Shown here: piece by piece, positions 13,427 through 63,994 of the stretch | Position numbering within the stretch: position 1 is the first letter of the stretch | Layout of the letters: each line of letters begins with the position of its first letter | Source: a virus | Lineage: Duplodnaviria; Heunggongvirae; Uroviricota; Caudoviricetes | IMG/VR virus record: IMGVR_UViG_3300027734_000034 | DNA length: 64,000 bases | Reading direction: 5' to 3' (one strand) | Translations under genes and position numbers: made by a program | Notes under the pieces: model-generated | What the model saw: the letters and a program-made list of their open reading frames with translations, nothing else | Told to the model about the DNA's origin: nothing | Databases searched by the model: none

Positions 13427-14128
13427 TTATTTGATATCTAGAGGTCTTTGCTTAGTAGCAACGATACAGTAAAAATGTTCTTTTGCTTTTTTCTTTTCAC
13501 CTTCTGGATCTGCATCATTCGGAAATTCAATATCAAATTCAAAGTTTTGAAACAAGTCAATGTTGAATCCAGTGCGTGTAATCAATGCTGCTAGTTGATT
13601 CTTACCTAAAATACTATAGTGATTTAGGTTAAATTCATGCTGTCTTTCAGTATCTGGGGCAGGAACTTCAATGTAAATCTTGCCAAACTGTTTAAGAATA
13701 CGATTATATTCCATTAAGCTAAAGATAGGGTATGGACTATGTTCCAATGCATGACGCAAAAAGATAAAGTCTACACTTTCATCATGGTATCCATCTTTTT
13801 GTGGGATAAAACTCAAGTCATATTTCTTAATCTTGTGACCTTTATCTTCACAGATTTTAATGTCTCCCGGGCTTAATGTTACACCAGTTAAATCAGTATA
13901 GCCTCTAGATTTCATTTGATCTAAGAAATAGCCTGGGCCACATCCTAAGTCTAAAATCTTGCTATCTTTTTTTAGATTTAATGGGTCGATATATTGTTCA
14001 ACCACTGATTTAGTCAATGACGAATGCATTTGACTATCGCCCTCATCATAGATGTGAGCAGTATACAACCATTCGTTGTAGAATTTTAACTTGATTAAGT
14101 CAAGTGTTTGGTTAATATCGATTATCAT
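13427..14128 (-). CDS. class I SAM-dependent methyltransferase
   Basis: Motif I ILDLGCGPGYFLD; downstream acidic residue pattern typical of Rossmann MTases. Confidence 0.55.
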   Translation of the reverse strand: MIIDINQTLDLIKLKFYNEWLYTAHIYDEGDSQMHSSLTKSVVEQYIDPLNLKKDSKILDLGCGPGYFLDQMKSRGYTDLTGVTLSPGDIKICEDKGHKIKKYDLSFIPQKDGYHDESVDFIFLRHALEHSPYPIFSLMEYNRILKQFGKIYIEVPAPDTERQHEFNLNHYSILGKNQLAALITRTGFNIDLFQNFEFDIEFPNDADPEGEKKKAKEHFYCIVATKQRPLDIK

Positions 14129-14180
14129 TAAGGTTCCTATAATTTGATATAATTACTTATTCTAGGAATATGATGATTGA

Positions 14181-14558
14181 TTATTTTCTTTTGTAACCTT
14201 TGAATGGTTTCACAATACTTTGCGTATTGGTATCAGGCAATTCTATACTTTCATCATCTCCATGATTCAAGTCCACAATATCACTACCCACTGCTTTATA
14301 TGCTTGCTTGAGCATTTTTGATTCTATATCAGTATATGGATGTGCTGTATTATAACGACCACTCCATGTTTCTGCATCTATCTCTAATGGAGTAGTTCCA
14401 TCTGCGCTAGCAACTGCCATCATAATACGATTCAATTCATAAGTACGGTCATACCCACCCGGATCACGAAACTTATGTAACCCACGCATGGCAAAGGATT
14501 GTCTTTTGGTAGGTGTACCGATCGTTCGTTGCTCAGTTAAAAACTCACTTGCTCTCAT
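14181..14558 (-). CDS. small protein with N-terminal T4 internal-protein-like capsid targeting sequence (MRASEFLTE)
   Basis: N-terminus MRASEFLTEQR cf. T4 IPI/IPII/IPIII CTS MKTYQEFIAE with L/I-x-E protease site; paralog of adjacent gene; C-terminus FKGYKRK. Confidence 0.45.
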   Translation of the reverse strand: MRASEFLTEQRTIGTPTKRQSFAMRGLHKFRDPGGYDRTYELNRIMMAVASADGTTPLEIDAETWSGRYNTAHPYTDIESKMLKQAYKAVGSDIVDLNHGDDESIELPDTNTQSIVKPFKGYKRK

Positions 14559-37516: not shown

Positions 37517-38035
37517 TTAGCTGACTTCTGTCCTCCCATCTCCTAGGTCCTTAGCACGGACCACTCTCATTTCTGAGGCCATTGCTCTATTTTCCGGATC
37601 AGCCTGTTGCTGTTCATAGAGTTCAAGTGCTACATTGCGACATACCGATTGAAACCAGCGTTCGGCAATGATAGTGTCTGTATCATCATCACGAATCTTA
37701 TATCCTGCACGAATTAGATTCAGAATGAATTTATCATTCCAATCAAGTTCAAACGCCCCAGTGTTAATATCATATGGATCAAGTTCCATCTTTAGTATAT
37801 TAACATACGGCAAACCAAGTTCATCTGCTTTTGCTTTGTCAGATACAGTTGGTTGTTCCTTCTGTACCTTAGGTGCCTTAGGTTTGCGAGGTTTCTTTAC
37901 CTTAGGCACTGCTGGGGGAGGAGCCAATAATTCCTCTAATGCTTTTTCTTTGCTACCAAAAAATCTATCAAATAGTCCCATTTTTATATCTCTCAAATAA
38001 TTTAAAGCTGGCAAGATTCTTTGCCTTTGATTCAC
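37517..38035 (-). CDS. hypothetical protein with Pro/Lys-rich linker (172 aa)
   Basis: ORF; PPAVPKVKKPRKPKAPKVQKEQP segment; overlaps UvdE 3' end. Confidence 0.4.
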   Translation of the reverse strand: MNQRQRILPALNYLRDIKMGLFDRFFGSKEKALEELLAPPPAVPKVKKPRKPKAPKVQKEQPTVSDKAKADELGLPYVNILKMELDPYDINTGAFELDWNDKFILNLIRAGYKIRDDDTDTIIAERWFQSVCRNVALELYEQQQADPENRAMASEMRVVRAKDLGDGRTEVS

Positions 38036-39023
38036 ACATTATATCAAAGTTATCACAGAATGTCAATGCCCAATCGTTCACAGCATCGTTCCAATAGTAG
38101 TCGCTATGTGCCCTAAGTTTCTGTTTGCTATGTCCATTTTCTAGCAAACGCTCCAACTCTGGGCGATCAGTAACGGAAAAGTCTCCGAGTACATCTTCGC
38201 GGCTAACACTGTAATGCATAGTAGGGCGAACACCCCGCCAACTGTCAATAACCCTTTTAACCCTGTCATCAGATGGGTCAATGTATTCTCCTTCACGTAT
38301 CCAATTATGGTGTATGTCCATGACCGTAGGCACGAGGTCAGATAGTGATAAGCAGTCAAGTAGTCCATGTGTATATTCCTCATTCTCTAGTGTAAGTGTG
38401 TTTCGGGCTTCGGGTGACAAACGATTGTACACATCACGAATGCCCTGTGGACCTTTACGACCACTGATGTGTACATTAACTTTGAAGTCTTGAAATGTTT
38501 TGCCATAGCCCATCCAACGAACCATGTCACAATGATATTCAAATTCTTCAATACTCTTATTTACTACTTCTTCACGGTCACTCGCTAAAACTACAAATTG
38601 GTCAGGGTGAAAACTAAGACGGACATCATTAGCCCGTGCAGTCTCGCCGATGGGACTGAACCATCGTGCTAGACTATCTTGCATTGTTTTATCTTGCCAA
38701 AAGTCTTGCCAACCATCCATTGTATAGAAGGGAAGCATGTCCGATGTAAGACGAACCATACGCAATGATGGTTCTAGTGATGACACTTTTTTAACTAGTG
38801 CATGAGTATTGAGAATGTTTTGCTTTGATACCTCAAGTATCTTTTCTTCTGCGGTGCTACGAGATTGTCTATTGATCCATGCACGGGTTGTACCGCCGGT
38901 GGTTAGTTCTCTGACAGAACAGACTTCACCTTTACTGTTTAGTTCACTAAATTTACAAGCAAAGCCTATGCGTTTGATAGATTGATTTGTCAAGATAAAA
39001 GTCCAAAGTGATAAATAATACAT
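37968..39023 (-). CDS. uvdE: UV damage endonuclease (UvdE/UvsE family)
   Basis: SFHPDQFVVLAS, NVHISG, LTLENEEYTHG, DIHHNW align with B. subtilis UvsE motifs SFHPNQFTLFTS, NIHVGG, MTLENDD, DYHHH. Confidence 0.6.
   Translation of the reverse strand: MYYLSLWTFILTNQSIKRIGFACKFSELNSKGEVCSVRELTTGGTTRAWINRQSRSTAEEKILEVSKQNILNTHALVKKVSSLEPSLRMVRLTSDMLPFYTMDGWQDFWQDKTMQDSLARWFSPIGETARANDVRLSFHPDQFVVLASDREEVVNKSIEEFEYHCDMVRWMGYGKTFQDFKVNVHISGRKGPQGIRDVYNRLSPEARNTLTLENEEYTHGLLDCLSLSDLVPTVMDIHHNWIREGEYIDPSDDRVKRVIDSWRGVRPTMHYSVSREDVLGDFSVTDRPELERLLENGHSKQKLRAHSDYYWNDAVNDWALTFCDNFDIMCESKAKNLASFKLFERYKNGTI
39010..39017 (+). promoter_or_regulatory. late-promoter-like box GATAAATA on plus strand 56 nt upstream of plus-strand gene cluster
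   Basis: GTGATAAATAATAC; same motif as minus-strand boxes. Confidence 0.3.
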
Positions 39024-39072: not shown

Positions 39073-40755
39073 ATGAGATTTACCGAATTTATATCTGAGA
39101 ACGAAAAGCCAGGATTATGGGCAAACATCCATGCCAAACGTGACCGAATCAAACATGGATCCGGTGAGCGTATGCGTAAGCCCGGAAGCAAGGGTGCTCC
39201 AACAGCAGATGCATTGAGAAAGTCAGCAACTGATGAAGCAGCTAATCCAGCACAGCAAGCAGCTATCGCTATCAATATGAAGAAGCATCATCAGAAGCCA
39301 AAAGGTGTGGCGGAAAGCGAGTTGGATAAATTTAAAAAGTATACCAGACCAGTTGTAAAGACTGAACCAAAGATCGAAAGAACAACTAATCCTGCAGGAA
39401 GAACAACTGACCATGTTGAATGGAAAGTTACAAGTCCGACGGGCGAGATTCACAGATATAAATCTAAAAAACAAGCACAAGAGCATTTTGATTCTTTTGG
39501 TCAGCAAGGTGTGGCGGAAGGCGACATGTATGGCGATCAAGAAGTAAGTTGGGAAAAAGGTGGTCGTAGAGCCCCAACTGGTGCATTTAAAAATCCTCAT
39601 ACCAGCGCATTAGGTCGAGCATTATATCGTGACCTCAGCAAGCAACCTAAATTAAGCCCGCAACAAGTCCAACGCAACAAAGAGCGTTGGGCACAGCGTC
39701 AAGCGGAGCGTGAGCAAGGTGTGGCGGAAGGCTCTGAAACACCACAACAGCAACAAGTTCGTGCTGCAATTACTAAAGGCATGGAAAAATGGGATAGTAA
39801 TAATAAGGCTACATATCAGAGTCAACCAACTAAAACTAATTATATGCCACCCAGCGGTTACGCTAGCGATTCATTGACAGGAGTAGATTCCATTGATCCT
39901 GATGGTACCGTGGTCATATCTCTTGGAAATACTGGTGCCGAAGCCACAATTAAAAAATTAGCAACATTAGGTGGTATGCCCGGCATTAAAACTAGACAAC
40001 TGCAATCACCAACCGTTTCATCTAGAGGTGTGGCGGAAGGCAGAAAGCCATTTCGTGATTTAAAATCTTGGGCTGACCACGCAAAATCACAAGGATTGAA
40101 AGTAAGCCCATCTGATCACATTGATTGGACACACGATGCTACTGATAAAGAAGGTAAGGTGCGTGGTAGATTTGTGACTACTAGTGTCCCACAAAATAGT
40201 CGAGGATTCATCCACCAGCAAGGTGTGGCGGAGGGAGAGAGTACTATTCTTTCTCCTGGAACACAAGTTACAGTACCTCACAAGGGAAAAATGGTTTCAG
40301 GTAAAATCGTTAGATATGATTCAGGCAAAGGTATAGAGTCCCCAGCATATATTGTTGATATCAGCGAATACGAATCACTCATCGTTCCAGTTTCTAGAGT
40401 GAAGCAAGACATGGATGAAGGCGAGAATTGGTCAAAGCACAATAACAAACGTGCAGGCGGGATGAGTAAAAAGAGTGTAGCCAGTTATCGCCGCAGTCAT
40501 CCTGGAAGCAAGATTCAAACAGCAGTCACAACTAAGCCTAGTAAATTAAAGAAGGGCAGTAAGGCAGCAAAACGCCGTGCTAGCTTCTGTGCTAGAATGC
40601 GTGGCATGAAGAAACATCGTACTGGTGCGAAAACAGCACACGATCCAAACAGCAACATAAATAAAAGTTTGCGTAGATGGCATTGCGAAAGTATTGAAGA
40701 ACTACACGAATTAGTAATGCTTGCCGAACAATTTATTAGGAACAATAAGAAATGA
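39073..40755 (+). CDS. CTS-bearing protein (N-terminus MRFTEFISE) with five QGVAEG repeats and basic C-terminus. Candidate internal head polyprotein.
   Basis: N-terminus resembles T4 IP capsid targeting sequence; repeats KGVAESE, QQGVAEGD, EQGVAEGS, SRGVAEGR, QQGVAEGE at about 70-100 aa intervals. Confidence 0.5.
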   Translation: MRFTEFISENEKPGLWANIHAKRDRIKHGSGERMRKPGSKGAPTADALRKSATDEAANPAQQAAIAINMKKHHQKPKGVAESELDKFKKYTRPVVKTEPKIERTTNPAGRTTDHVEWKVTSPTGEIHRYKSKKQAQEHFDSFGQQGVAEGDMYGDQEVSWEKGGRRAPTGAFKNPHTSALGRALYRDLSKQPKLSPQQVQRNKERWAQRQAEREQGVAEGSETPQQQQVRAAITKGMEKWDSNNKATYQSQPTKTNYMPPSGYASDSLTGVDSIDPDGTVVISLGNTGAEATIKKLATLGGMPGIKTRQLQSPTVSSRGVAEGRKPFRDLKSWADHAKSQGLKVSPSDHIDWTHDATDKEGKVRGRFVTTSVPQNSRGFIHQQGVAEGESTILSPGTQVTVPHKGKMVSGKIVRYDSGKGIESPAYIVDISEYESLIVPVSRVKQDMDEGENWSKHNNKRAGGMSKKSVASYRRSHPGSKIQTAVTTKPSKLKKGSKAAKRRASFCARMRGMKKHRTGAKTAHDPNSNINKSLRRWHCESIEELHELVMLAEQFIRNNKK

Positions 40756-41330
40756 AAAAACTACTAACGATACTTGCATTGACCTTCTTTGGTTCTGCAT
40801 TTGCCGGAGAGATTACAGTATGTGATGGACAGTATGCATTATGTGCTGCTAGTACTTGCAAACCAACTAACAAAACAATTACTGGTAATAACGGCGTAGC
40901 ATACCCAGAAGTAGAATGCCGTTGCCCAATACTTAAAGGTCGTGCTATCGCTGATACATCAGCAGGTAACATGCAAGGTTCATGTGCTGCAACTGATGAT
41001 AAACATGTTTGGAGTTTGTTTGCTCCTAAACTTTACTACCCACAAGAGGCTAGCAATTTTAGCAACAAACCAAAAGATAAAAAAGTAACTATACAAAAGT
41101 GTGATGCTAGTTTGAATCTAGGTGCAAAGTCTAGCAATTGCTTTAGTTGGAATTGTACGATAGGTAGTGATGGTATTGCACTATGCTCATGCCCAACTGG
41201 TCAAGTACCGGCAAATACTGCATTTTTAACAGAAGCAGGTCAAGGTAACCCAGAAGCATGTTCACAATACCCAGTAAGTTTACCAATCAAAGCGCAAGAT
41301 AAGGCTGAAGCTAAGGAAGCAAAAAAATGA
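40752..41330 (+). CDS. secreted Cys-rich protein (192 aa)
   Basis: Signal peptide MKKLLTILALTFFGSAFA; 14 Cys; start overlaps upstream stop. Confidence 0.45.
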   Translation: MKKLLTILALTFFGSAFAGEITVCDGQYALCAASTCKPTNKTITGNNGVAYPEVECRCPILKGRAIADTSAGNMQGSCAATDDKHVWSLFAPKLYYPQEASNFSNKPKDKKVTIQKCDASLNLGAKSSNCFSWNCTIGSDGIALCSCPTGQVPANTAFLTEAGQGNPEACSQYPVSLPIKAQDKAEAKEAKK

Positions 41331-43072
41331 ACTTTAAAGAATTACACGAAGGCGCAGAGCCAAATATGCCTGGTGCCCCTAGTGGCATCAAGATTATGAC
41401 ACCTCAGCAGTTCGTTGCTAGTGCAGGTGATTCAAAATCTGATGAAGAGGTATCAGAAGGCGGTAATGCATTCATGCCAGGCATACAAAATACGGCAGAA
41501 TACAAAGCAGGTTTTGCAACAGGCAAGTTACCAGTTCCATATCCTGAAGGTACACAACAATATGCTAGCTATTACAAAGGAGTGATTGATAAGTCTACCC
41601 CTAATTTAAATAAAGGTACAGCAGGAAATTCGTTGACTGAATTTGCCCCTAGTGATGACGGTGATGATGGATTTAGTGAAGAAACACTAAAAGGTCTTGC
41701 AGCGCAATGGTGGAATGGTGATGAAGATCCTCGTGTAGAAAAATTATTGATGGCTGCAGGTTGGGAGATTGGTCAAGATGATGGGTATGACAACGGTGGT
41801 GTGTTTGTGGTGCGAGCCGGTGATGACAGTGGTCATAGTTATCTCAGTTGGCCAGCAGAAGAACTAAATCCTAATTTATCAGAAACACATTTAAATAGAA
41901 TTCGTAGCTTATCTGGATTAGTTGAAGCAACTAAACTACCAGCACAAACTCGTGATTTGGATAGTCAAGAATTTCAAGACTATATGAAGCGTATCGTTGG
42001 TACACCTGATTTAGACAAAGAAGGTAATGTTAAAGTAGATAAAAAAGGTAACGAAAAGTATACTACTGGCAAGACCAAAGGTGACAAATACAAGATGCCT
42101 TACATCCATCGTAGTAGTGTAGTTACATACTTAAGCCCAGATGGTAAAACATATGATGAAGATGCAGTTAAACAAACATTAGCAATTCGTCCTAAATCAT
42201 TATTAAAGCAAAATGAAAAGATGAAACATAGCAATGGTGAGTTTGAACAATTCTTCAATGTTGGATTTGCAGCATTAGTAGGAATTGCATTAGATGAACA
42301 AACTAATAAATTAATCATTGTTAATACTTGTCCAGGCGCTGGCTCTTGTAAAGTAGAGTGCTTTGCTATGAAAGGCGGCAAGATTCAATTCAAGGCTGCA
42401 TGGCAAAGTGACGGAAGAATACTAACATATCTATTAAATGATCCTGATGGTTTCTTCAATCAACTAAGTAGTGAAATATCTGCTGAGGCACAAGCAGCAG
42501 CAAAGGGTGATAAGAAATTCCCTAATGGTTGGCAAACAACAGTTCGCTGGCATGATGCTGGTGACTTCTTTAGTCCAGAATATTTAGACATGGCATTGAA
42601 GATGGCTGCTAAACATCCTGATGTTAAGTTCTATGCTTATACTAAAATGGCTGGAGCAGCATTAGCGGATAAGCCAGACAACTTCATTATCAATTGGAGT
42701 GAAGGTGCTAACACTGCACAAGAGAAACAAATCAAAGCACAAGATCCTAAGTTAGATAAAACAAAGAACAGTCGCATCGTTCCAGAGAAACTATTCTATG
42801 ACTTATTGGCTAAGGACGAGAAGGGCAATTTAGCAAAGACTCCAGATGGTGCATGGCAACCTGCAGGGCCGCAAGAATTACAACAAATGAAACAGCGTAT
42901 TGCAACAGAATACGGTATTAGTGCTAACTCTATTTTGAGTTATACTGAGTACATGGCTAAGAGAAATTCAATCCCAGCTGGAATGAAGTACAATGTTATT
43001 GTTGCACCAGGTGAAGGTGATGTTAGTGCTAACGACCCAGGCGTACTAAGTACCTTATTGCTAAGACATTAA
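41327..43072 (+). CDS. large hypothetical protein (581 aa) with CTS-like N-terminus MNFKELHE
   Basis: ORF with overlapping start; weak similarity of N-terminus to MRxxEFxxE leaders. Confidence 0.45.
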   Translation: MNFKELHEGAEPNMPGAPSGIKIMTPQQFVASAGDSKSDEEVSEGGNAFMPGIQNTAEYKAGFATGKLPVPYPEGTQQYASYYKGVIDKSTPNLNKGTAGNSLTEFAPSDDGDDGFSEETLKGLAAQWWNGDEDPRVEKLLMAAGWEIGQDDGYDNGGVFVVRAGDDSGHSYLSWPAEELNPNLSETHLNRIRSLSGLVEATKLPAQTRDLDSQEFQDYMKRIVGTPDLDKEGNVKVDKKGNEKYTTGKTKGDKYKMPYIHRSSVVTYLSPDGKTYDEDAVKQTLAIRPKSLLKQNEKMKHSNGEFEQFFNVGFAALVGIALDEQTNKLIIVNTCPGAGSCKVECFAMKGGKIQFKAAWQSDGRILTYLLNDPDGFFNQLSSEISAEAQAAAKGDKKFPNGWQTTVRWHDAGDFFSPEYLDMALKMAAKHPDVKFYAYTKMAGAALADKPDNFIINWSEGANTAQEKQIKAQDPKLDKTKNSRIVPEKLFYDLLAKDEKGNLAKTPDGAWQPAGPQELQQMKQRIATEYGISANSILSYTEYMAKRNSIPAGMKYNVIVAPGEGDVSANDPGVLSTLLLRH

Positions 43073-45769: not shown

Positions 45770-46612
45770 TTAAGTGCCCCATTCGTTTTTGAATAACGGC
45801 ACTTGTAGTCTATCACTGTACCGCCATCCTTTTCGCATTGCCATTTCTGCAACCGCCCTATTATTAAGATTGTACACCCGCTCAACGCCACCACAAGGCA
45901 TAAGATAGACATGACCACGAAAACCCCTCTTACGATACGCATTTACTGCCTCCTCAGCTTCTTCCATATCCTCGTTAGTAGCTACTACAAATTTGAGATA
46001 TGTATGCCCAACTTGGCTATATTCATAGATTATGTCTGGGCAGATAGCATCATCCCACTTCTCACCACTGATGCTGAGTTTAGGACTGACGCTGAATGTG
46101 ATAGAACCCATGCTACGACTTGTACACCATTTATTCAAGAAGAATCGTAGATCCTGATGTAATGATTGTGTACCATTAGTCTCAAAAGTTAGTTCTTGTA
46201 AGCTACGCATCTTCTCGTTTGAAAGTAAATCAACAAAACTACGCTGCCAACCTAGTAGTGGCTCACCACCAGTGATGACAAGATGCTCATCTAACCAACG
46301 CTTCTCTGGCAACATATCCATGATACTACTAACAATACTATCAGTTTCAAGCATTGGACTTAAGTCTTTGAATCTGGGATCCCAACTCGCATAGCTATCA
46401 CATCCTGTACTGACAAGTGGTAACATTTTGTAATCAGTATACTTTGTCGGGTCGATATTATTTGCTTCCTCGCTTAGTTTACCTTTCGGCATACCAAAGC
46501 CTGCACATTTGAAGTTACATCCGAATGTTCGTAGAAATACTGAGGGGACACCCATGTATCTACCTTCACCTTGAATGCTATAGAATAGTTCTGCTATTTT
46601 TAATTTTGCCAT
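45770..46612 (-). CDS. queE: 7-carboxy-7-deazaguanine synthase (QueE-like radical SAM)
   Basis: N-terminus AELFYSIQGEGRYMGVPSVFLRTFGCNFKC matches QueE E.FxSxQGEG...G.P.xFxRxxGC; Cys cluster spacing atypical (CxxxC...C). Confidence 0.6.
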   Translation of the reverse strand: MAKLKIAELFYSIQGEGRYMGVPSVFLRTFGCNFKCAGFGMPKGKLSEEANNIDPTKYTDYKMLPLVSTGCDSYASWDPRFKDLSPMLETDSIVSSIMDMLPEKRWLDEHLVITGGEPLLGWQRSFVDLLSNEKMRSLQELTFETNGTQSLHQDLRFFLNKWCTSRSMGSITFSVSPKLSISGEKWDDAICPDIIYEYSQVGHTYLKFVVATNEDMEEAEEAVNAYRKRGFRGHVYLMPCGGVERVYNLNNRAVAEMAMRKGWRYSDRLQVPLFKNEWGT

Positions 46613-46615
46613 GTT

Positions 46616-47713
46616 TTATTGCCTGAATGAATTTATGTCACCTAAATATACTTTTTTGTTTTTAAAAATATCATCTTTTAATATTTCTTTTAGTAAAATT
46701 TTATCTTCTGCGTTTAAATTTAATCTATCGTACATAATGTTATCTAAATGTCCCCACTGCCGTATACTATTAAAATATATACCTGTCAAGTTTTCATATG
46801 ATAATTGCCAATTAATATAGTCTTTAATTTCTTTATAATTACCTTTTTGGACAGTAAAAGAAGTACTCCAGCCAATAAAATTTTTAAAACTGTTACTTAT
46901 AATCATTTCATTAAGAAATTTTAAATTTTCATCTAATTTATCTTTAGATCCATTTATTCTTATCTTTGAATAAGTTTCATTTGAAAATGCATCGATACTT
47001 ACTGTAATATGTGTGATATTATTCCATAATGGTTTTATTTGATTCCAGCGTGATTCTGTCATTAAAATACCGTTGGTCATTAGTTTTATTGTTAAATTTT
47101 CATTTAGATTTTTTGTTGACAATGTTTTTAAGTAATTCCAATAAGTAGGACTTGCAAAAGCATCTCCACTACCAGTAATGTTTATACTAACCTTTTCACC
47201 TTGTTCTAATAAATAATCAACAAGTTTTTCAACTTTGTCATTGATATTATCTATTTGTTTATTTTCTCCCAATTTATGAAGTATTAAATTATTACGACAA
47301 CTAGGACATTGCAAATTACATGATAAATCATAACAAAAATGAATTATGATTGAATTAGAATTTTTATAAAAATCTAATAATTGCAAAGGTACAATTGTAT
47401 TACCAGGCATTACTTTATCATTTAACATTTGACTAATAAAAGGACAATAGTCATTGCAGTTTGTGAATTTACCCTCACTCATATCTGATATCATAGCTAG
47501 TCGTTCTGAATTATTAATGATATCTTCTATTGAATCTGTAATAATATTGCCGCAAAATTTTGGTAACCAAGAAAAACAACATATAGTAATATCACCATTG
47601 TGGTGAATTTCTAAATGTTTTGATATTTTATAACAGCCGAAATTTTTTAAATATTCCTGTGTTCTTGCATACTCATTTTCTGATTTCATTAAAAAATTCA
47701 TGTTATGATTCAA
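46616..47713 (-). CDS. radical SAM domain protein of unknown function
   Basis: CNLQCPSC (CxxxCxxC) motif about 130 aa from N-terminus; additional Cys pairs near N-terminus; 365 aa. Confidence 0.55.
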   Translation of the reverse strand: MNHNMNFLMKSENEYARTQEYLKNFGCYKISKHLEIHHNGDITICCFSWLPKFCGNIITDSIEDIINNSERLAMISDMSEGKFTNCNDYCPFISQMLNDKVMPGNTIVPLQLLDFYKNSNSIIIHFCYDLSCNLQCPSCRNNLILHKLGENKQIDNINDKVEKLVDYLLEQGEKVSINITGSGDAFASPTYWNYLKTLSTKNLNENLTIKLMTNGILMTESRWNQIKPLWNNITHITVSIDAFSNETYSKIRINGSKDKLDENLKFLNEMIISNSFKNFIGWSTSFTVQKGNYKEIKDYINWQLSYENLTGIYFNSIRQWGHLDNIMYDRLNLNAEDKILLKEILKDDIFKNKKVYLGDINSFRQ

Positions 47714-48192
47714 TCTTTAAATTCATTATCTTCTCTGTGTCCTTGACGACCTGCCATGTTTGAATCAGTCTCACGTACTTCTACTTTACAGCACCAAACA
47801 CGTTTGGCTTCTTCACTGCCGCAGTTGGGTAAGAAGATAGTGTTCACATATTCATATAAGAAATCACTGATACCTTCACATCCTGTCTTTTCAACCTCTG
47901 TAATTTTTGCTAGTTTAAGTTTACCTAGATTCAATAGATGTTCACGCATCGGGTCATCTTGTGCGACTAGTAATGTATGATCGAACCATTCTTCTAATTT
48001 TTCTTTGAGTGGTTTCAAGCCACCAAAGTCAGTCACCCAGTTTCGTGCATCTAATGTATCCGCTTCAAATTCAAAATGAAACGACATTGCGTAACCATGA
48101 ATCATGTTACAATGACTATCTGCACGCCATTGACGATAAGCTACTGGACCTATCTGTTTGTACGTTTTTGTACTGAAATATTTTTTTGCCAT
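47710..48192 (-). CDS. queD: QueD/PTPS-family protein (6-carboxytetrahydropterin synthase-like), divergent metal site
   Basis: SHCNMIHGYAMSFHFEFE vs QueD HKCGRLHGHSFMVRLEI; WFDHTLLV vs LDHHYLN; third His replaced by Tyr. Confidence 0.5.
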   Translation of the reverse strand: MAKKYFSTKTYKQIGPVAYRQWRADSHCNMIHGYAMSFHFEFEADTLDARNWVTDFGGLKPLKEKLEEWFDHTLLVAQDDPMREHLLNLGKLKLAKITEVEKTGCEGISDFLYEYVNTIFLPNCGSEEAKRVWCCKVEVRETDSNMAGRQGHREDNEFKD

Positions 48193-48266
48193 GTTGTTCT
48201 CCTATGTTAATTATAGCATAGGCAGCAGAATTTGTAAAGCGGGATGATGACCGAAGACCGCTATCT

Positions 48267-48728
48267 TTATTTATCCTTTGATTCAGCTTGTACTACACGC
48301 TTACGCAAACTACTGCTACTGAAACTATGGTCACGGCTATTGAATACTAATTCAATCTTACGCTTCTCGCAGATTGCTCTACCAGTAAAGTCTTTCTCCA
48401 TGTACTCAACCCCTAGTATACGCACATCTACTGGCAATGTCAACAGTATGTCTTCCAAATCTTTTTCTGTATTGTAAACAACAATTTCATCTACAAAACG
48501 GACAGCACTTAAACTGATTTGGCGTTCAACAATACTTTGAATGGGAGCATTCTTATCTGGTCTATCCCATTGTGCATTATTTTGTAACCCAGCAATGAGG
48601 TAATCGCAATGATTCTTAGCTTCACTAAGCATTGCGATATGTCCTGCATGTAATATATCAAATTGCGAGAACACGATACCTATCTTTAGGCCTTGTAATT
48701 TTAGTTCTTTGATACGGTTGAATATCAT
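48267..48728 (-). CDS. cytidylyltransferase-family nucleotidyltransferase (TagD/RfaE-II-like, HxGH motif)
   Basis: IGIVFSQFDILHAGHIAMLSEAKNHCDYLIAG aligns with TagD [30 protein letters not shown]. Confidence 0.6.
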   Translation of the reverse strand: MIFNRIKELKLQGLKIGIVFSQFDILHAGHIAMLSEAKNHCDYLIAGLQNNAQWDRPDKNAPIQSIVERQISLSAVRFVDEIVVYNTEKDLEDILLTLPVDVRILGVEYMEKDFTGRAICEKRKIELVFNSRDHSFSSSSLRKRVVQAESKDK

Positions 48729-48997
48729 TCTTCAACTCCAAAAAAGTGTTCTTTAATTGCTACATAACTGTCAACACCACATTGAACATAACCATCCCAA
48801 TGTGTGTCCTTCATCATAAGTTCATCTTCCAGCACAGGCAGATATTGTTCTCTTACTTGATTCATACATTCAGCTATAATCAATTCAGCAAGATTTTCTA
48901 AGTTTTGTTTGTCATCATCATGCCCGTATAAGCTAGACCGTTTTAATGCCCAATCAAATCCAGCCTGTTCAGCAAGTTGTTGAATTCGTTCGTTCAT
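48725..48997 (-). CDS. MNERI/HFGVE small-protein family member
   Basis: MNERIQQLAEQAG, NLENLAELIIAEC, C-terminus KEHFFGVEE. Confidence 0.5.
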   Translation of the reverse strand: MNERIQQLAEQAGFDWALKRSSLYGHDDDKQNLENLAELIIAECMNQVREQYLPVLEDELMMKDTHWDGYVQCGVDSYVAIKEHFFGVEE

Positions 48998-49677
48998 TTC
49001 CCACCCCGAGCCAATTGATAGAATTCTGCTCTTGCTGCTGGATCACTTTTGAATCCACCACCTAATTTACTTGTAACAGTACTAGAGCCAGTATCTTCTA
49101 CACCTCTTGATTTAACACAATAATGTTGTGCATCAATCATGACCGCAACATCTTCTGTCTCAAGGATATATTGCAATGCGTGAAAGATTTGTTCTGTCAA
49201 TCGTTCTTGTATTTGTGGACGCTTGCTAAAGTATTCTACGATACGATTGATTTTACTCAATCCAAGTACTTTCTGATTGGGAACGTATGCCACAGTTGCT
49301 AGTCCATCGATGACTACAAAGTGATGTTCGCAATTGCTTTGTACATTGATATTGCGTTCGCATACCATTTCGTTGTACTTCATCTTGTTATCAACTGCTG
49401 TACATTTAGGAAATGCCTCATAATCTAATCCCCAAAAGATTTCATTGACATACATCTTTGCTACACGTTTTGGGGTGTCAATCAGACTATCATCTGTTAA
49501 GTCAAGACCTAATGCTGTCATAATATCAGCAAATAATACTTCAATGACTTCAATCTTGCCTTTACGGTCGATGATTTGACCTGTCTCTTTGATAGGAGTT
49601 TCAACTCCCATCTTAACCAAATGTTCGTGTACTTTTTGACCCAACTCTGGATCTGTTTTTGTTTTATTATAACTCAT
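48994..49677 (-). CDS. folE: GTP cyclohydrolase I
   Basis: CEHH motif (NCEHHFVV), C-terminal QHYCVKSRGVEDTGSSTVTS region typical of FolE; strong RBS AAGGAAGG. Confidence 0.8.
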   Translation of the reverse strand: MSYNKTKTDPELGQKVHEHLVKMGVETPIKETGQIIDRKGKIEVIEVLFADIMTALGLDLTDDSLIDTPKRVAKMYVNEIFWGLDYEAFPKCTAVDNKMKYNEMVCERNINVQSNCEHHFVVIDGLATVAYVPNQKVLGLSKINRIVEYFSKRPQIQERLTEQIFHALQYILETEDVAVMIDAQHYCVKSRGVEDTGSSTVTSKLGGGFKSDPAARAEFYQLARGGK

Positions 49678-49756: not shown

Positions 49757-49945
49757 TTAAGCCTTAGCTTCTTTTCTTGCTGCTTTTTCAGCGGTGATTT
49801 CATTACGGCGAGCCTTGACTGCTTTAGCTAGTTCACCCAATGCTTTACGGGCACGAGTTCCTGCTGCTGCATTACCTTTTTCAAATTTTTCATGTTCGGC
49901 TTCGTATGCTGCCAATTGTGTTTTAATATCATTATGTGCGTTCAT
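49757..49945 (-). CDS. small Ala/Lys-rich helical protein (62 aa)
   Basis: ORF only. Confidence 0.35.
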   Translation of the reverse strand: MNAHNDIKTQLAAYEAEHEKFEKGNAAAGTRARKALGELAKAVKARRNEITAEKAARKEAKA

Positions 49946-57881: not shown

Positions 57882-58192
57882 TACAGTGTTTTACCCACAG
57901 TTTCCAAGATAGTATTTAATTCCTCGTGGTCGGCATTTGTTTGACCAAGACTTGCTTTGTGTGCGACAGATATTGCCTTCTTAAGAATGCTAGGCTTTAC
58001 TTCTAGTTCTTCTGCAATAGCCTTGACAGTATCACTTAGACCCTCGCGTAGGGTATCGATCTCGTGTAATACTACCATGCCCTCGTTGATAAGTTGAGTC
58101 AACTTAATCTTTTGCTCTCCGGTAAACATTTTATCACTCATAGTTTCTCCTTGTAAAGTAATTAGTATACATGCCTTGTGTAGAAAAGTCAA
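57881..58192 (-). CDS. hypothetical protein (103 aa), stop overlaps polymerase ATG (TAATG)
   Basis: ORF; translational coupling. Confidence 0.4.
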   Translation of the reverse strand: MTFLHKACILITLQGETMSDKMFTGEQKIKLTQLINEGMVVLHEIDTLREGLSDTVKAIAEELEVKPSILKKAISVAHKASLGQTNADHEELNTILETVGKTL

Positions 58193-58797
58193 ACATTTTG
58201 CTGTTTTTCTACAATCTTTTTAACCACAGTATTCAGTCCTGGGTTAATATGTAATGCGTGTGGCATTAAATGTGTTCTTACATAGTTACGCATATACTTC
58301 GTGTCATCATTGCTATTATCGTGACACCAATCAATTGATTTCTGTTCGCACCATTTTGTGAATTCGATTTTGTTTGTAGTTAGAAATGGGCGAACAACAT
58401 TGTTTCTTTTTGCTGGGATAACTTTGGCTTGTCCATGCATTGCTGACCAAAGATATGTTTCTACGCAATCATCTAAGTGATGACCAGTTATCACTGGACC
58501 CAATGAATTGCCAATACTATCCAAAAAATCATAGCGTTCATTACGCCAATGTTCTTCCATGCTAAGTTCTTTGGGTTTACTCTTTTTAATCATCCCAATC
58601 ATCAATGGAAGTTTTCGTTCTGTGCAGAAATTAGCAACAAATTGTAAGGCTCGTTCGCTATTCTCTGTTCCATGATGGAAGAAAGCGCAACCTACCTTAT
58701 GCTTGTGTGAAAGGAAATCAGTGATGGCAACAGAGTCAACACCGCCACTAAGTGCGACAACAACTTCTTTTGGTAATGGAAAGAGTAGTTTTAGCAT
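58189..58797 (-). CDS. PP-loop ATP pyrophosphatase, TilS N-terminal-domain-like (not a canonical QueC)
   Basis: PP-loop VVALSGGVDSVAI; TilS-type motifs VITGHHLDDCVETYL (AHHxDDQxET) and RNYVRTHLMP (RNRIRHELLP); lacks QueC Zn-ribbon Cys cluster and TilS C-terminal domains. Confidence 0.5.
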   Translation of the reverse strand: MLKLLFPLPKEVVVALSGGVDSVAITDFLSHKHKVGCAFFHHGTENSERALQFVANFCTERKLPLMIGMIKKSKPKELSMEEHWRNERYDFLDSIGNSLGPVITGHHLDDCVETYLWSAMHGQAKVIPAKRNNVVRPFLTTNKIEFTKWCEQKSIDWCHDNSNDDTKYMRNYVRTHLMPHALHINPGLNTVVKKIVEKQQNV

Positions 58798-60188: not shown

Positions 60189-60817
60189 ATTACAGTTACC
60201 CTTACATCTGATTCCCCATAATTTTGTTGATATTCAACTGGGGGTTGTTCTATATTTAACATATCACAGAGCATGGTATTATTTAATGGGGTTTTGCCTG
60301 GGTAGTTTAAGGTGCCGTTGACAATACCGATGTTCTGTGCTTCAATAATTTTAGACATTGCACGTAGATTTTTATAATGTTGATAGTTTGGATATGTAAT
60401 ATCAAAATGTCCGCATTTTACCCACCACCCTAAACAAGCGTCATCGGGTCTGTGTACCAATATCAGTGGACATTCTGGCCAGGTCTTTTTTATAAACTCA
60501 ATATGTTGAGTATAGCTGAACCAATGACTTTTGATTATACGAATGCCTTCACCATTAAATGGGCGGTCAAATTCTAATTCGTGTCCTTGTTTGCTGCGTG
60601 TGCCAAGACCATCTCCATCTAAAAACCAATCGCCGAATTCCATGCCCGGATCAAAGTATGCACCCATATGCATGAGTTCTGTGCGACCAGTCGCATCATG
60701 AAAATAGGTGCGCTCAATACTGTGGTCACTGCGATCAATACTGGGACTGTGATAGATGTTCTTCGCTACACTGCTCCATTTACTGCCTGGGGCGCCGGCT
60801 ACAAATATATATTTCAT
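60185..60817 (-). CDS. hypothetical protein (210 aa)
   Basis: ORF only. Confidence 0.4.
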   Translation of the reverse strand: MKYIFVAGAPGSKWSSVAKNIYHSPSIDRSDHSIERTYFHDATGRTELMHMGAYFDPGMEFGDWFLDGDGLGTRSKQGHELEFDRPFNGEGIRIIKSHWFSYTQHIEFIKKTWPECPLILVHRPDDACLGWWVKCGHFDITYPNYQHYKNLRAMSKIIEAQNIGIVNGTLNYPGKTPLNNTMLCDMLNIEQPPVEYQQNYGESDVRVTVI

Positions 60818-61770
60818 TCAGGTTTAAATCGTTGTGCTATTGGTTGCCATTCTTTGCGTAACTTAATCATGCTAGCATTTAGTCCTTGTGCTGTGTGTTC
60901 ATTCGTACTTATGAACATCATGTTCTCCTCAAACTTTTCTTTAGCTTCTTTGCTATTGATAGCAGGGATGAAATTTGTACGATACCAGTCTTGTATATCT
61001 TTTGATGTACCTTTGGGTAGTATAAGATTCCAGCAGCCATATAGATTTAACCCCGGCGCGTAGTCTTTCATTAATGGCACTTTTTCTAATCCATGAATAG
61101 GTACTTCACTTGCTAGACCAATTAACTTTAACTTACCTGCTTGTACATAAGGATAACCAACTGCAACTGGTGTCACACTAAACTCAACATGCCCGCCCAT
61201 AACATCTAATAATGCTTGCGCTGGCCCTTTGTACATAATAGTTTCAACCTTATCACCTGCTACATTCAACTTACTAGTTAGATATTCTACTGCTAGTTTA
61301 TGTCCGCCTCCACCAATAGCAAAATTGATAGGTCTTTGTTTAGATTTAATTTCATTTATCAATTCTTCTGGGGTGTTTACTTTACTACTAGGGTGTGCCC
61401 AGAATGCTAATGGGCTTTTAGCAATATTAGCGATTGGTTCAAATTCAAAAATGTTATATTTAAGCATTTGCGGATACCATATTTCAGCAGTCACCCATTG
61501 ACTATTACATGCTGGCATAGAGATGGTATATCCATCATTAGCTACAGTGTTGAAATAATTTGTAGCAAGATTGCCATCTGCGCCTGGTTTATATTCAGAT
61601 ATAAATTTTGTACCAGTGTTCTTTTCTACAATGTCTGCTACGATTTTAAAACTTATCTCATTGCCAGCACCCGGACCGTTTGGATATATAACAGTAATTG
61701 GTTTAGTTGGTTGCCAAGCTATAGCAGACAATGACACAAGTAAAGTTAGAATAAAGATTATTGATTTCAT
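60814..61770 (-). CDS. TctC/Bug-family periplasmic solute-binding protein. Likely start is MKSIIF at 61770; the track ORF extends to 61800.
   Basis: Signal peptide MKSIIFILTLLVSLSAIA; KPITVIYPNGPGAGNE and YKGPAQALLDVMGGHVEFSV...AGKLKLIGLAS match TctC family conserved blocks. Confidence 0.55.
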   Translation of the reverse strand: MKSIIFILTLLVSLSAIAWQPTKPITVIYPNGPGAGNEISFKIVADIVEKNTGTKFISEYKPGADGNLATNYFNTVANDGYTISMPACNSQWVTAEIWYPQMLKYNIFEFEPIANIAKSPLAFWAHPSSKVNTPEELINEIKSKQRPINFAIGGGGHKLAVEYLTSKLNVAGDKVETIMYKGPAQALLDVMGGHVEFSVTPVAVGYPYVQAGKLKLIGLASEVPIHGLEKVPLMKDYAPGLNLYGCWNLILPKGTSKDIQDWYRTNFIPAINSKEAKEKFEENMMFISTNEHTAQGLNASMIKLRKEWQPIAQRFKPE

Positions 61771-61802
61771 AAGAGTGATTAAATATATATTTAACAGCAT
61801 TT

Positions 61803-63146: not shown

Positions 63147-63587
63147 TTACGCTCGGGCTTTCTTTAGAGTACTACGAATCATCCATTGATGTTTTTCGTG
63201 AGCATCTAGCCTCTCAGCGATAAAGTTTGCTATACCTTGTTTGTTTTCTTGTGTAGCTGAAGCAAAGCAATGGTTGAGTAAATCAATCATCTTACTGTTA
63301 TCTTCGAATAATTCAGCAAACATTAATTCAGCACGAGGAATTTTAAGTTGGTCTTGAATGATAGATAATTCAGCGTAGCGTGTTAAACTGCCGGGTGCAT
63401 AACTATCCAATGTACGAATGTATTCAGCAACTTTATCTACTGCACTATATACTTCTTCATAGAAATTACCAAAGAATTCGTGATATTCAGGGAAGTCAGG
63501 TCCTTCAACATTCCAATGAAAGTTCTGTGCTTTGATGGATAGTGAATTAACGCTAGCCAATAATACTTTTAAATCTTCTGCTAACAT
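63147..63587 (-). CDS. dps: Dps-family (ferritin-like) protein
   Basis: QNFHWNVEGPDFPEYHEFFGNFYEEV matches Dps HNFHWNVKGPNFxxLHExFEE.Y; IAERL downstream. Confidence 0.65.
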   Translation of the reverse strand: MLAEDLKVLLASVNSLSIKAQNFHWNVEGPDFPEYHEFFGNFYEEVYSAVDKVAEYIRTLDSYAPGSLTRYAELSIIQDQLKIPRAELMFAELFEDNSKMIDLLNHCFASATQENKQGIANFIAERLDAHEKHQWMIRSTLKKARA

Positions 63588-63994
63588 TATTGCTGTCCTT
63601 GTTGTTGTAGTAACTGTTTTGCCTTTTCTACACTAAGCATTGGGCGAGGATGTGATCCATCTATAATACTTTGTAGATATTCTGCACTATAACCACTTGG
63701 TGCTTTTGCTGCTGGTTGTTCATCTGATGGTGCTACTTGAGTAGCAACTGGTTTACCAGTTAAACGATTAATACCAGGATCTTGATCTGGTAGTACACGA
63801 CCGTGTGCGGCACCGCCTAATGCCATAGCACCTGCTAATGCTGCACTACCTAATGCGCTTTTCCAGCCTTCATCTACTTGGTGTACACCTGAAAGTATTG
63901 CTGATTCTTTTATTGGTACACAGTTATTAACTCTAGTATCACCCTTCATCTTAGTGCCTTGTTTTTTATAACCAGTCCAGCATTTAGGATCCAT
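63587..63994 (-). CDS. hypothetical protein (135 aa)
   Basis: ORF only. Confidence 0.4.
   Translation of the reverse strand: MDPKCWTGYKKQGTKMKGDTRVNNCVPIKESAILSGVHQVDEGWKSALGSAALAGAMALGGAAHGRVLPDQDPGINRLTGKPVATQVAPSDEQPAAKAPSGYSAEYLQSIIDGSHPRPMLSVEKAKQLLQQQGQQ

Follow-up and report, generated by a model that had tools for sequence, protein, structure and literature searches.

A leader resembling T4 propeptides and a recurring GVAE linker in a modular protein of a freshwater phage: in-frame cassette exchange and putative prohead-protease sites

Results

Organization of the cassette gene

The sequence analyzed here, referred to as the window, is the whole 64,000-nucleotide (nt) stretch of IMG/VR record IMGVR_UViG_3300027734_000034, which derives from an uncultured freshwater phage (Caudoviricetes) in JGI metagenomes. 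An open reading frame (ORF) at 39073–40755 (+) runs without interruption and encodes a protein of 560 amino acids (aa) and 62 kDa, with a pI of about 10; identical copies of this protein are encoded on four metagenome contigs. The gene, termed the cassette gene below, encodes a short N-terminal leader and seven modules (M1 to M7) joined by short linkers containing GVAE or a degenerate form of it. Cutting the protein after each linker Glu defines the modules, with the following layout (L132, L133, L134 and L003 are related loci discussed later).

39073–39099 (+): leader MRFTEFISE, similar to T4 capsid-targeting and propeptide sequences, with a putative cut after Glu9
39100–39315 (+): M1, aa 10–81, with GLWANIHAKR... 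and a QQAAIAINMKK motif; basic, pI 10.3; matches phrog_16028
39304–39318 (+): linker 1, GVAES (GGTGTGGCGGAAAGC)
39316–39519 (+): M2, aa 82–149, modeled as a small beta-beta-beta-alpha domain with a predicted local distance difference test score (pLDDT) of about 90
39508–39522 (+): linker 2, GVAEG, within an exact copy of the 18-mer CAAGGTGTGGCGGAAGGC (39505–39522)
39520–39729 (+): M3, aa 150–219, with module-sized matches
39718–39732 (+): linker 3, GVAEG, within an exact copy of the same 18-mer (39715–39732)
39730–40038 (+): M4, aa 220–322, which between linkers 3 and 4 forms a block 97.6% identical in nt to L134
40027–40041 (+): linker 4, GVAEG
40039–40233 (+): M5, aa 323–387, with module-sized matches
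40222–40236 (+): linker 5, GVAEG (GGTGTGGCGGAGGGA), where homology with L132, L133 and L003 resumes
40234–40419 (+): M6, aa 388–449, a small beta-barrel-like domain and the sole acidic module
40408–40422 (+): linker 6, degenerate DMDEG (GACATGGATGAAGGC), which retains Met-x-Glu-Gly
40420–40752 (+): M7, aa 450–560, DUF6321 plus a C-terminal helix, net charge +21

The initial annotation, made from the sequence of the window, had described a 560-aa ORF with five GVAE(G/S) motifs at about residues 80, 150, 215, 320 and 385. Translation and motif counting bore this out, placing GVAE at residues 78, 146, 216, 319 and 384 in the contexts PKGVAES, QQGVAEG, EQGVAEG, SRGVAEG and QQGVAEG. Gln or Arg was said to precede every copy, which holds for copies 2 to 5 and fails for copy 1 (Lys), and the spacing said to be even is only roughly so, with gaps of 68, 70, 103 and 65 aa. 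The count of five GVAE copies was correct, and a degenerate sixth copy, KQDMDEG at residue 446, had been overlooked. In nt, the linker spacings are 204, 210, 309, 195 and 186, every one a multiple of three. About 0.014 GVAE copies are expected from the composition of the protein against the five observed (P ~4e-12), so the five copies are not due to chance. At the DNA level, the 14-mer GGTGTGGCGGARGG (up to two mismatches) occurs five times in the window, always within the cassette gene, where 0.18 copies are expected, and none of 100 shuffles gave five copies. A chance motif was rejected on these two tests.

The modules are 62–111 aa long, corresponding to predicted pieces of 6.7–12.6 kDa, and all except M6 are basic. 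The only Pfam match was DUF6321 (PF19846) at aa 460–536 (38.3 bits against a gathering threshold of 28.5); in PHROGs, the 50-aa family phrog_16028 matched at aa 11–52. In cyanophages and pelagiphages, both families occur as small stand-alone proteins or as parts of others. Pairwise comparison of the modules gave nothing significant except weak M2/M5 (E = 0.001) and M1/M7 (E = 0.04) similarities. Because the segments between the repeats are mutually dissimilar, the repeat is the linker rather than a unit of the protein; a tandem-repeat protein was rejected, as only the linker recurs between unrelated modules. An AlphaFold model built from real homologues had a mean pLDDT of 59 and is informative for the domain and linker pattern only. 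All six linkers fall below a pLDDT of 50 and separate more confident small domains, a pattern that fits a beads-on-a-string layout in the model. Foldseek comparison of the model with BFVD returned nothing at E <= 0.001, a PDB sequence search gave nothing significant (best E = 0.56), and PADLOC found no defense-system match to the cassette protein. A literature search identified no paper naming DUF6321 and none in which the peptide GVAEG appears together with "phage".

The same modules are widespread in other arrangements. A search of 5.8 billion proteins returned 2800 relatives of 300–1600 aa, which match the query piecewise only. When the central 374 aa were scanned without a profile against 1.8 billion representatives, the matches were module-sized and ended at linkers. 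Every module recurs independently elsewhere, in any position or order, flanked by the linker, a linker variant, or an N-terminal leader. Examples include M2 fused straight to M6-M7 (P0003), M4 fused to M7 (P0007), M6 apart from M7 (P0019), and two copies of M5 (P0047). Within the orthologous group, M7 serves as the conserved anchor (92–98% identity). The N-terminal consensus of 260 retrieved relatives is M(R/K)(F/I)x(E/D)(I/F)I(S/T)E, with the family consensus form MRFTEIISE.

Conservation of the linker as DNA

In DNA, the linker takes the form (CAA)GGTGTGGCGGAAGG(C), with rare GTG and GCG codons. All five copies in the window read GGTGTGGCGGA(A/G)(G/A)G, three of them within (G)CAAGGTGTGGCGGA(A/G)GG. 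In the window genome, GTG makes up 13% of Val codons and GCG 6% of Ala codons, and the linkers use GTG-GCG in five of five cases. At syntenic loci found via protein (n = 22 GVAE sites), Val was encoded by GTG at 82% and Ala by GCG at 95% of the sites. A further 166 GVAE sites from viral contigs, a sample that leaves out the sites used to find those contigs, gave 81% GTG and 78% GCG; background use in the same ORFs was 15–20% and 5–7%, respectively. The exact 18-mer CAAGGTGTGGCGGAAGGC was found in more than 120 IMG/VR viral contig stretches among the matches listed, and 153 of 154 copies among these matches are read in frame as QGVAEG; the ORFs holding it are long and have very different termini. 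The control, a scan of 596 Gb of cellular (bacterial and archaeal) genomes, found just 58 copies of the 18-mer, of which 53 lie in DNA with a GC content of 50% or higher. The five low-GC copies lie on three contigs, including a short contig from a metagenome-assembled genome (L183), where one 510-aa ORF with four GVAE motifs holds three of them. In these comparisons, the strong conservation of synonymous sites shows that the linker is maintained by a DNA-level process.

Two explanations act at the level of nucleic acid. In the first, the 18-mer would be a signal for a dedicated DNA machine, such as a Chi-like hotspot or the target of a site-specific recombinase or nuclease. The extreme conservation of one exact 18-mer, in more than 120 contigs among the matches listed, is what such a signal predicts, and the GGTGTGG in the G-rich 18-mer presumably recalls Chi-type sequences, if loosely. 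However, the 18-mer occurs within genes in one reading frame and orientation, fitting a coding constraint, and the syntenic loci have no consistently adjacent recombinase. Short homology is, moreover, enough for T4-type recombination (PMC2839356). A dedicated DNA signal is thus highly improbable. In the second, the 18-mer would act on RNA or translation, with rare codons or a Shine-Dalgarno-like AAGGUG...GGAAGG pausing ribosomes while the preceding module folds. No Val or Ala codons are rarer in these genomes than GTG and GCG, yet about 80–95% of linker sites use them, and the motif always lies exactly between modules, as pausing would require. Nevertheless, degenerate linkers like GACATGGATGAAGGC drop the rare codons and retain Met-x-Glu-Gly, no RNA family was matched in an Rfam search, and a conserved RNA structure is impossible because the linker flanks are unrelated. 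Pausing also leaves the homology breakpoints and the leader unexplained, and we regard it as very improbable.

Exchange of modules among syntenic genomes

Five genomes, including the window, share a common gene order of UvdE (−), cassette gene, GP88 gene, and epimerase (−). The flanking UvdE gene is constant at 1056 nt and about 88% identical across the five, whereas the cassette gene encodes proteins of 560, 826, 891, 686 and 523 aa. In five related genomes, blocks of nt homology with the window start or stop only a few nt from a linker or from the leader end. The leader end (39098) is itself a homology breakpoint with L003 and L134. L132 aligns with the window at 39302–39524 (98.7%) and 40216–40756 (95.2%); M2 meets M6 directly in L132, and the two homology blocks overlap by the 23-nt linker. 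By sequence comparison, the difference between L132 and the window is a clean loss or gain of M3–M5 between linkers 2 and 5. In L134, M4 (39712–40045, 97.6% identical) is joined to M7, with homology continuing from 40412. Identical cassette junctions recur across independent samples, so assembly chimeras are unlikely. T4-type recombination is known to need only short homology (PMC2839356). Collectively, these comparisons demonstrate linker-mediated in-frame exchange of cassettes as far as sequence comparison can, and we hold it to be highly probable.

The window contains at least two further leader-bearing genes.

41327–43072 (+): GP88-domain protein with leader MNFKELHE↓G, of the same leader/linker/cassette class (here and below, ↓ marks a cut or putative cut)
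14181–14558 (−): third leader-bearing ORF, MRASEFLTE↓Q..., 125 aa

The GP88 gene also has a variable cassette region in L002, L003, L133 and L134, bounded by QGVAEG-type linkers, so that its product ranges from 461 to 581 aa. Homologues of the 125-aa ORF were found in 13 of the 120 IMG/VR loci among the matches listed, with no match in cultured phages. Between the cassette and GP88 genes, 40752–41330 (+) encodes a 192-aa Cys-rich protein with a signal-peptide-like N terminus, whose start and stop overlap both neighbors; none of the four other syntenic genomes has this gene, and its product was negative in Pfam and PADLOC. A 135-aa ORF at 63587–63994 (−) opens with a DPKCWTGY...NCVP module that recurs as an inner cassette of the L125 leader protein and of P0206 and P0193. 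Of the 120 viral loci with linkers among the matches listed, 50 have a DNA polymerase homologue nearby; therefore, a further cassette locus is probably located near that end of the window.

Leader and linkers as candidate prohead-protease sites

The leader was compared with sequences read directly from the T4 genome.

T4 IPII / IPIII propeptide: MKTYQEFIAE↓A
T4 gp24 propeptide: MAKINELLRE↓S
T4 gp22 propeptide: MLKEQLIAE↓A
T4 gp23 cut: ...FLTE65↓A

The family leaders MRFTEFISE↓N, MKINEIISE, MNFKELLE↓G and MRAREFIAE↓S closely match the T4 propeptides. Positions 4, 7, 8 and 10 (Y, F, I, E) of the T4 capsid-targeting sequence (CTS) correspond to F3, F6, I7 and E9 of MRFTEFISE. In T4, residues 8 and 10 of the CTS (Ile, Glu) control processing, and Asp at position 10 blocks it. 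Leader and linker can also take each other's place before a single module: GVAE↓SELDKFKKY in the window corresponds to MRFTEISE↓SYLDKYKKY in P0035, and in P0158 the leader passes directly into the linker, MRAQEFTQGVAE↓G.

Diverged linkers were informative. Among 134 distinct junction windows without an exact GVAE, 94% contained (F/I/L/V/M)-x-E, compared with 8.6% of 502 interior windows, while (F/I/L/V/M)-x-D was present in 10% of junction and interior windows alike, with no enrichment of Asp. Numbered from the putative cut after P1, the junctions carry V, I, L or M at P3; A, D, E, T, S, N and others at P2; any residue at P4; and mostly Gly at P1'. Variants include DVAEG, GVSEG, SILEG, LDEG, MMAEG and DMDEG. 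As judged from the residues retained, this pattern (aliphatic P3, Glu at P1, Asp excluded) is the specificity of T4 gp21. A pure DNA joint or spacer that drifted would lose the residue pattern; its retention favors a role at the peptide level. Sites of the phiKZ type (S/A/G-x-E) were rejected, as the junction P3 is V, I, L or M.

These results bear on the proposal in the initial annotation that the GVAE repeats of a protein with a CTS-like N terminus are prohead-protease sites of a polyprotein. The resemblance of MRFTEFISE to the T4 IPII/IPIII sequence MKTYQEFIAE upholds the description of the N terminus. Conservation of the motif in homologues had been set beforehand as a refutation test, and QGVAEG was found 429 times in the 260 relatives. 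With respect to the sites, the gp21-type alternative (aliphatic-x-Glu) and the leader fit, and the phiKZ alternative does not, given Val at P3. The polyprotein reading therefore finds partial support, as both the leader and the logic of the sites agree strongly with it; cleavage at the repeats is a prediction.

A candidate second signal was noted at some C termini. The motif (K/R)xL(S/A)G(L/M) ends gp22-like scaffolds in L033 (5430–6518), L020 (790–1887) and PA5oct (gp330), where it resembles the end of T4 gp68 (RRKALGLS). It terminates 6 of 161 linker-bearing ORFs and 3 of 2468 others, two of these three being the scaffolds themselves, and it may represent a second prohead-targeting signal. 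The GP88 protein has a motif of the scaffold type internally (NRIRSLSGL, about aa 190–197).

Phage context and the location of head genes

The DNA polymerase and large terminase subunit (TerL) encoded in the window are 46–50% identical to those of T4-related jumbo phages such as Phosso, Atu_ph07, Vibrio 2.275.O and PA5oct. A megablast search of 20 kb of the window against a phage collection found nothing, so the window phage has no close cultured relative there. Of the 120 viral loci found by the 18-mer among the matches listed, 93 share further genes with the window and 10 have a T4-like terminase match. In L020, L033 and L125, a T4-like portal, a gp21-type protease and/or a gp23-type major capsid protein (MCP) are encoded within a few kb of the linker ORF. 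The L033 MCP is 65.6% identical to that of PA5oct, and the MCPs of L020, L033 and PA5oct have a common (Y/F)L(K/V)E↓NASAG where T4 has FLTE↓AEIGG, which by this correspondence is likely the MCP maturation site.

Two small leader-bearing proteins extend the parallel with packaged T4 proteins. PA5oct gp333 (73 aa, beginning MKINDIITE↓G) is encoded between the portal and protease genes and is annotated as a virion protein by mass spectrometry; it was the sole match in a leader-pattern scan of 65 kb of the PA5oct genome. The PA5oct omics paper contains no cleavage-site data. L002 encodes, in the same plus-strand island (13988–14374, +), a 128-aa ART-PolyVal ADP-ribosyltransferase starting MRAREFIAE↓S, a leader with nearly the T4 CTS ending EFIAE. 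T4 Alt is likewise an ADP-ribosyltransferase, and it is packaged, processed by gp21 and injected.

Several observations weigh against packaging and cleavage of the cassette protein. Genes for a prohead protease and an MCP were not found in the 64-kb window, and the 10 kb to the left of the window hold a RecA-like gene, a helicase and small ORFs only, with no head genes; the suggested link to a protease therefore comes from related contigs and cultured relatives. The cassette gene lies among repair and nucleotide-metabolism genes, outside any head module, although T4 ip genes likewise lie outside the head module in the T4 genome. The T4-type late promoter TATAAATA is absent upstream of the cassette gene and is not enriched in the window. 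P3 is mostly Val here, and the T4 sites that were read carry Leu or Ile. DUF6321 and related modules are likewise present in podoviruses, and in multi-module proteins of cyanophages that have neither leader nor linker, so the modules are not intrinsically capsid-dependent. Finally, because synonymous sites are strongly conserved, part of the peptide conservation may be hitch-hiking.

Much of this would be expected if the product were an uncleaved, unpackaged multi-domain cytoplasmic protein, such as a DNA-binding factor, with the linker a spacer kept as a DNA joint. Synonymous positions are conserved equally to nonsynonymous ones, breakpoints fall at linkers, the gene is outside the head module with no protease gene found in the window, and the cyanophage relatives are multi-module proteins without the linker. 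Such a spacer would not, however, account for aliphatic-x-Glu being kept at 94% of diverged junctions with Asp not tolerated and P2 and P4 free, for a leader that matches cleaved T4 propeptides and substitutes positionally for the linker, or for the leader-bearing gp333 in the PA5oct virion. We consider an uncleaved protein unlikely, though it retains appreciable weight. Cleavage might instead occur outside the capsid, with another enzyme (a host protease or a papain-like Peptidase_C1) releasing the modules into the cytoplasm. L003 (3485–4333) and L133 (4212–5060) indeed have a Peptidase_C1/C39_2 gene roughly 5 kb upstream of their cassette gene, and in phages that lack a T4-type protease the modules can be found as small proteins of their own. 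That gene sits among Laminin_G tail-fiber-like genes, however; there was no Peptidase_C1 match among the subset of window ORFs scanned against Pfam, and both the site signature and the leader are of the gp21 type. Processing by another protease is accordingly very improbable. Taken together, the evidence tilts modestly toward packaging and cleavage of the cassette protein, as predicted from its leader and junctions.

Other genes in the window were noted. The product of 2431–5226 (−), a 931-aa protein encoded beside the large terminase, resembles a PA5oct virion structural protein in its N-terminal third; because sites of the aliphatic-x-E↓G kind are numerous over the protein as a whole (three IAE↓G, together with VDE↓G and VSE↓E), it may be another processed virion protein. 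A set of 7-deazaguanine (queuosine-precursor) genes at 45770–49677 and 58189–58797 (−) comprises GTP cyclohydrolase I, PTPS/QueD, two radical-SAM proteins, CTP_transf_like and a PP-loop QueC-like protein. Nearby, at about 49757–49945 (−), lies a 62-aa Hc1 histone-like gene, and together these genes suggest modified DNA. A TctC/Bug-family periplasmic receptor is encoded at 60814–61800 (−). This family is greatly expanded in Burkholderiales, and the gene may hint at a host in that order. The UvdE gene (37968–39023, −) adjoins the leader-gene island, and T4 ipII/ipIII adjoin denV (T4 65–66.4 kb); denV encodes a UV-repair endonuclease that is nonhomologous to UvdE, and the parallel may be coincidence.

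Discussion

In the mechanism proposed here, the precursor would be a string of beads, in which a 9-residue T4-type capsid-targeting leader is followed by seven unrelated small modules on (Q)GVAE↓G linkers. The linker DNA, an 18–23-nt direct repeat (CAAGGTGTGGCGGAAGGC), serves the recombination-proficient T4-like phage as a homology patch for the in-frame deletion, insertion and exchange of modules, a step that the genome comparisons show and that gives rise to the different module sets seen at one locus in close relatives. The leader would carry the precursor into the prohead core, where a gp21-type prohead protease would cut behind the Glu that ends the leader and behind the Glu of every linker. 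The small, mostly basic peptides set free in this way would then remain associated with the packaged DNA and reach the host together with it. Because the joint and the cleavage site would be one sequence, any recombinant would automatically be processed correctly. As a whole, the model of a capsid-targeted, protease-diced polyprotein of small basic cargo, diversified by linker recombination, is the one we favor, with moderate confidence. The new element suggested by the sequence comparisons is that a single repeat, present in many genes, would be both an in-frame recombination joint and a putative cleavage site.

The function of the cargo is a matter for speculation. T4 internal proteins (IPs) inhibit modification-dependent nucleases, and by analogy with them and with polyvalent proteins the released peptides may be early-acting or antidefense factors. 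The 7-deazaguanine genes represent a trait that attracts modification-dependent restriction, which makes such targets plausible. A broader and more tentative view, possible although we hold it short of probable, is that a large group of freshwater T4-related phages shares a pool of cassettes and that the 18-nt linker assembles them into polyproteins that are delivered in the capsid, diced and injected, probably against host defenses. If so, the system would amount to a protein-level, integron-like reassortment of the injected-protein cocktail, in which one short sequence generates diversity as a joint and secures function as a cleavage site, and the leader supplies delivery to the capsid. It would explain how jumbo T4-like phages reassort injected proteins rapidly in the face of host defenses, and it would point to hundreds of candidate injected effectors or antidefense modules, each delimited by linkers. 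Leader and QGVAEG linkers together would also offer a natural, portable way to load several small proteins into a phage capsid. Even if the cleavage proposal is wrong, an in-frame 18-nt joint with rare codons in more than 120 viral contigs, among the matches listed, is notable. In the papers searched, the linker peptide motif was undescribed.

Several known systems share parts of this organization. In phiKZ, 201phi2-1 and SPN3US, head and inner-body proteins that undergo proteolytic processing are also cut after Glu, at several sites per precursor, and much of the processed cargo is ejected into the host. In those phages, the motif is S/A/G-x-E, no repeated linker or cassette exchange has been described, and the TerL and DNA polymerase of the window match T4-related jumbo phages rather than phiKZ. 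The family DUF6321 (PF19846) covers one of the seven modules; it is a family without assigned function and does not explain the architecture. Small basic modules of the DUF6321 and phrog_16028 types come from marine and freshwater phages, where they also stand alone; M7 and M1 belong to this group and are here modules of one ORF.

The recombination aspect recalls the modular shuffling associated with PeSL elements in T4-type genomes (PMC2839356, PMC4122927) and the repeats of the IP locus (Repoila et al. 1994), where short conserved joints flank variable units. Near-identical phage genomes with PeSLs differ by deletion, insertion and replacement (PMC2839356, PMC4122927). PeSLs are, however, intergenic promoter/stem-loop units of about 50–60 nt that move whole genes, whereas an 18–23-nt in-frame coding joint here moves protein domains inside a gene.

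Polyvalent proteins, known from phages and conjugative elements (Iyer, Burroughs, Anand, de Souza, and Aravind 2017, PMC5512222), likewise have many unrelated domains in mosaic architectures. They contain two to fifteen domains, are predicted to be packaged and codelivered with DNA, and were explicitly likened to polyproteins (PMC5512222); the leader-bearing ART-PolyVal gene of the L002 island provides a link to them. Polyvalent proteins carry large enzymatic effector domains, with release proposed to occur by embedded peptidase domains (PMC5512222). The cassette protein, in contrast, has modules of 60–110 aa with no recognized catalytic domain or embedded peptidase, and its linker is putatively cut in trans.

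The closest parallel in leader and locus is with T4 IPI, IPII and IPIII and their CTS. T4 IPs are injected antirestriction proteins. Both systems have a short leader ending in aliphatic-small-Glu (MKTYQEFIAE↓A and MRFTEFISE↓N) and small, mostly basic cargo that has no other sequence conservation among members, in T4-related phages; in both, the locus varies strongly from one close relative to the next, with the leader alone conserved. Each T4 IP has a gene of its own, a single leader and a single cleavage, unlike the cassette gene, with seven or more cargo modules per ORF, repeated internal sites, and shuffling joints within the coding sequence. The cassette protein has no homology to IPI–III beyond the leader, and its packaging in the capsid is predicted from sequence. 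The cassette locus thus appears to resemble a T4 internal-protein locus combined with a polyvalent protein, rather than to be a member of the IPI–III family by sequence.

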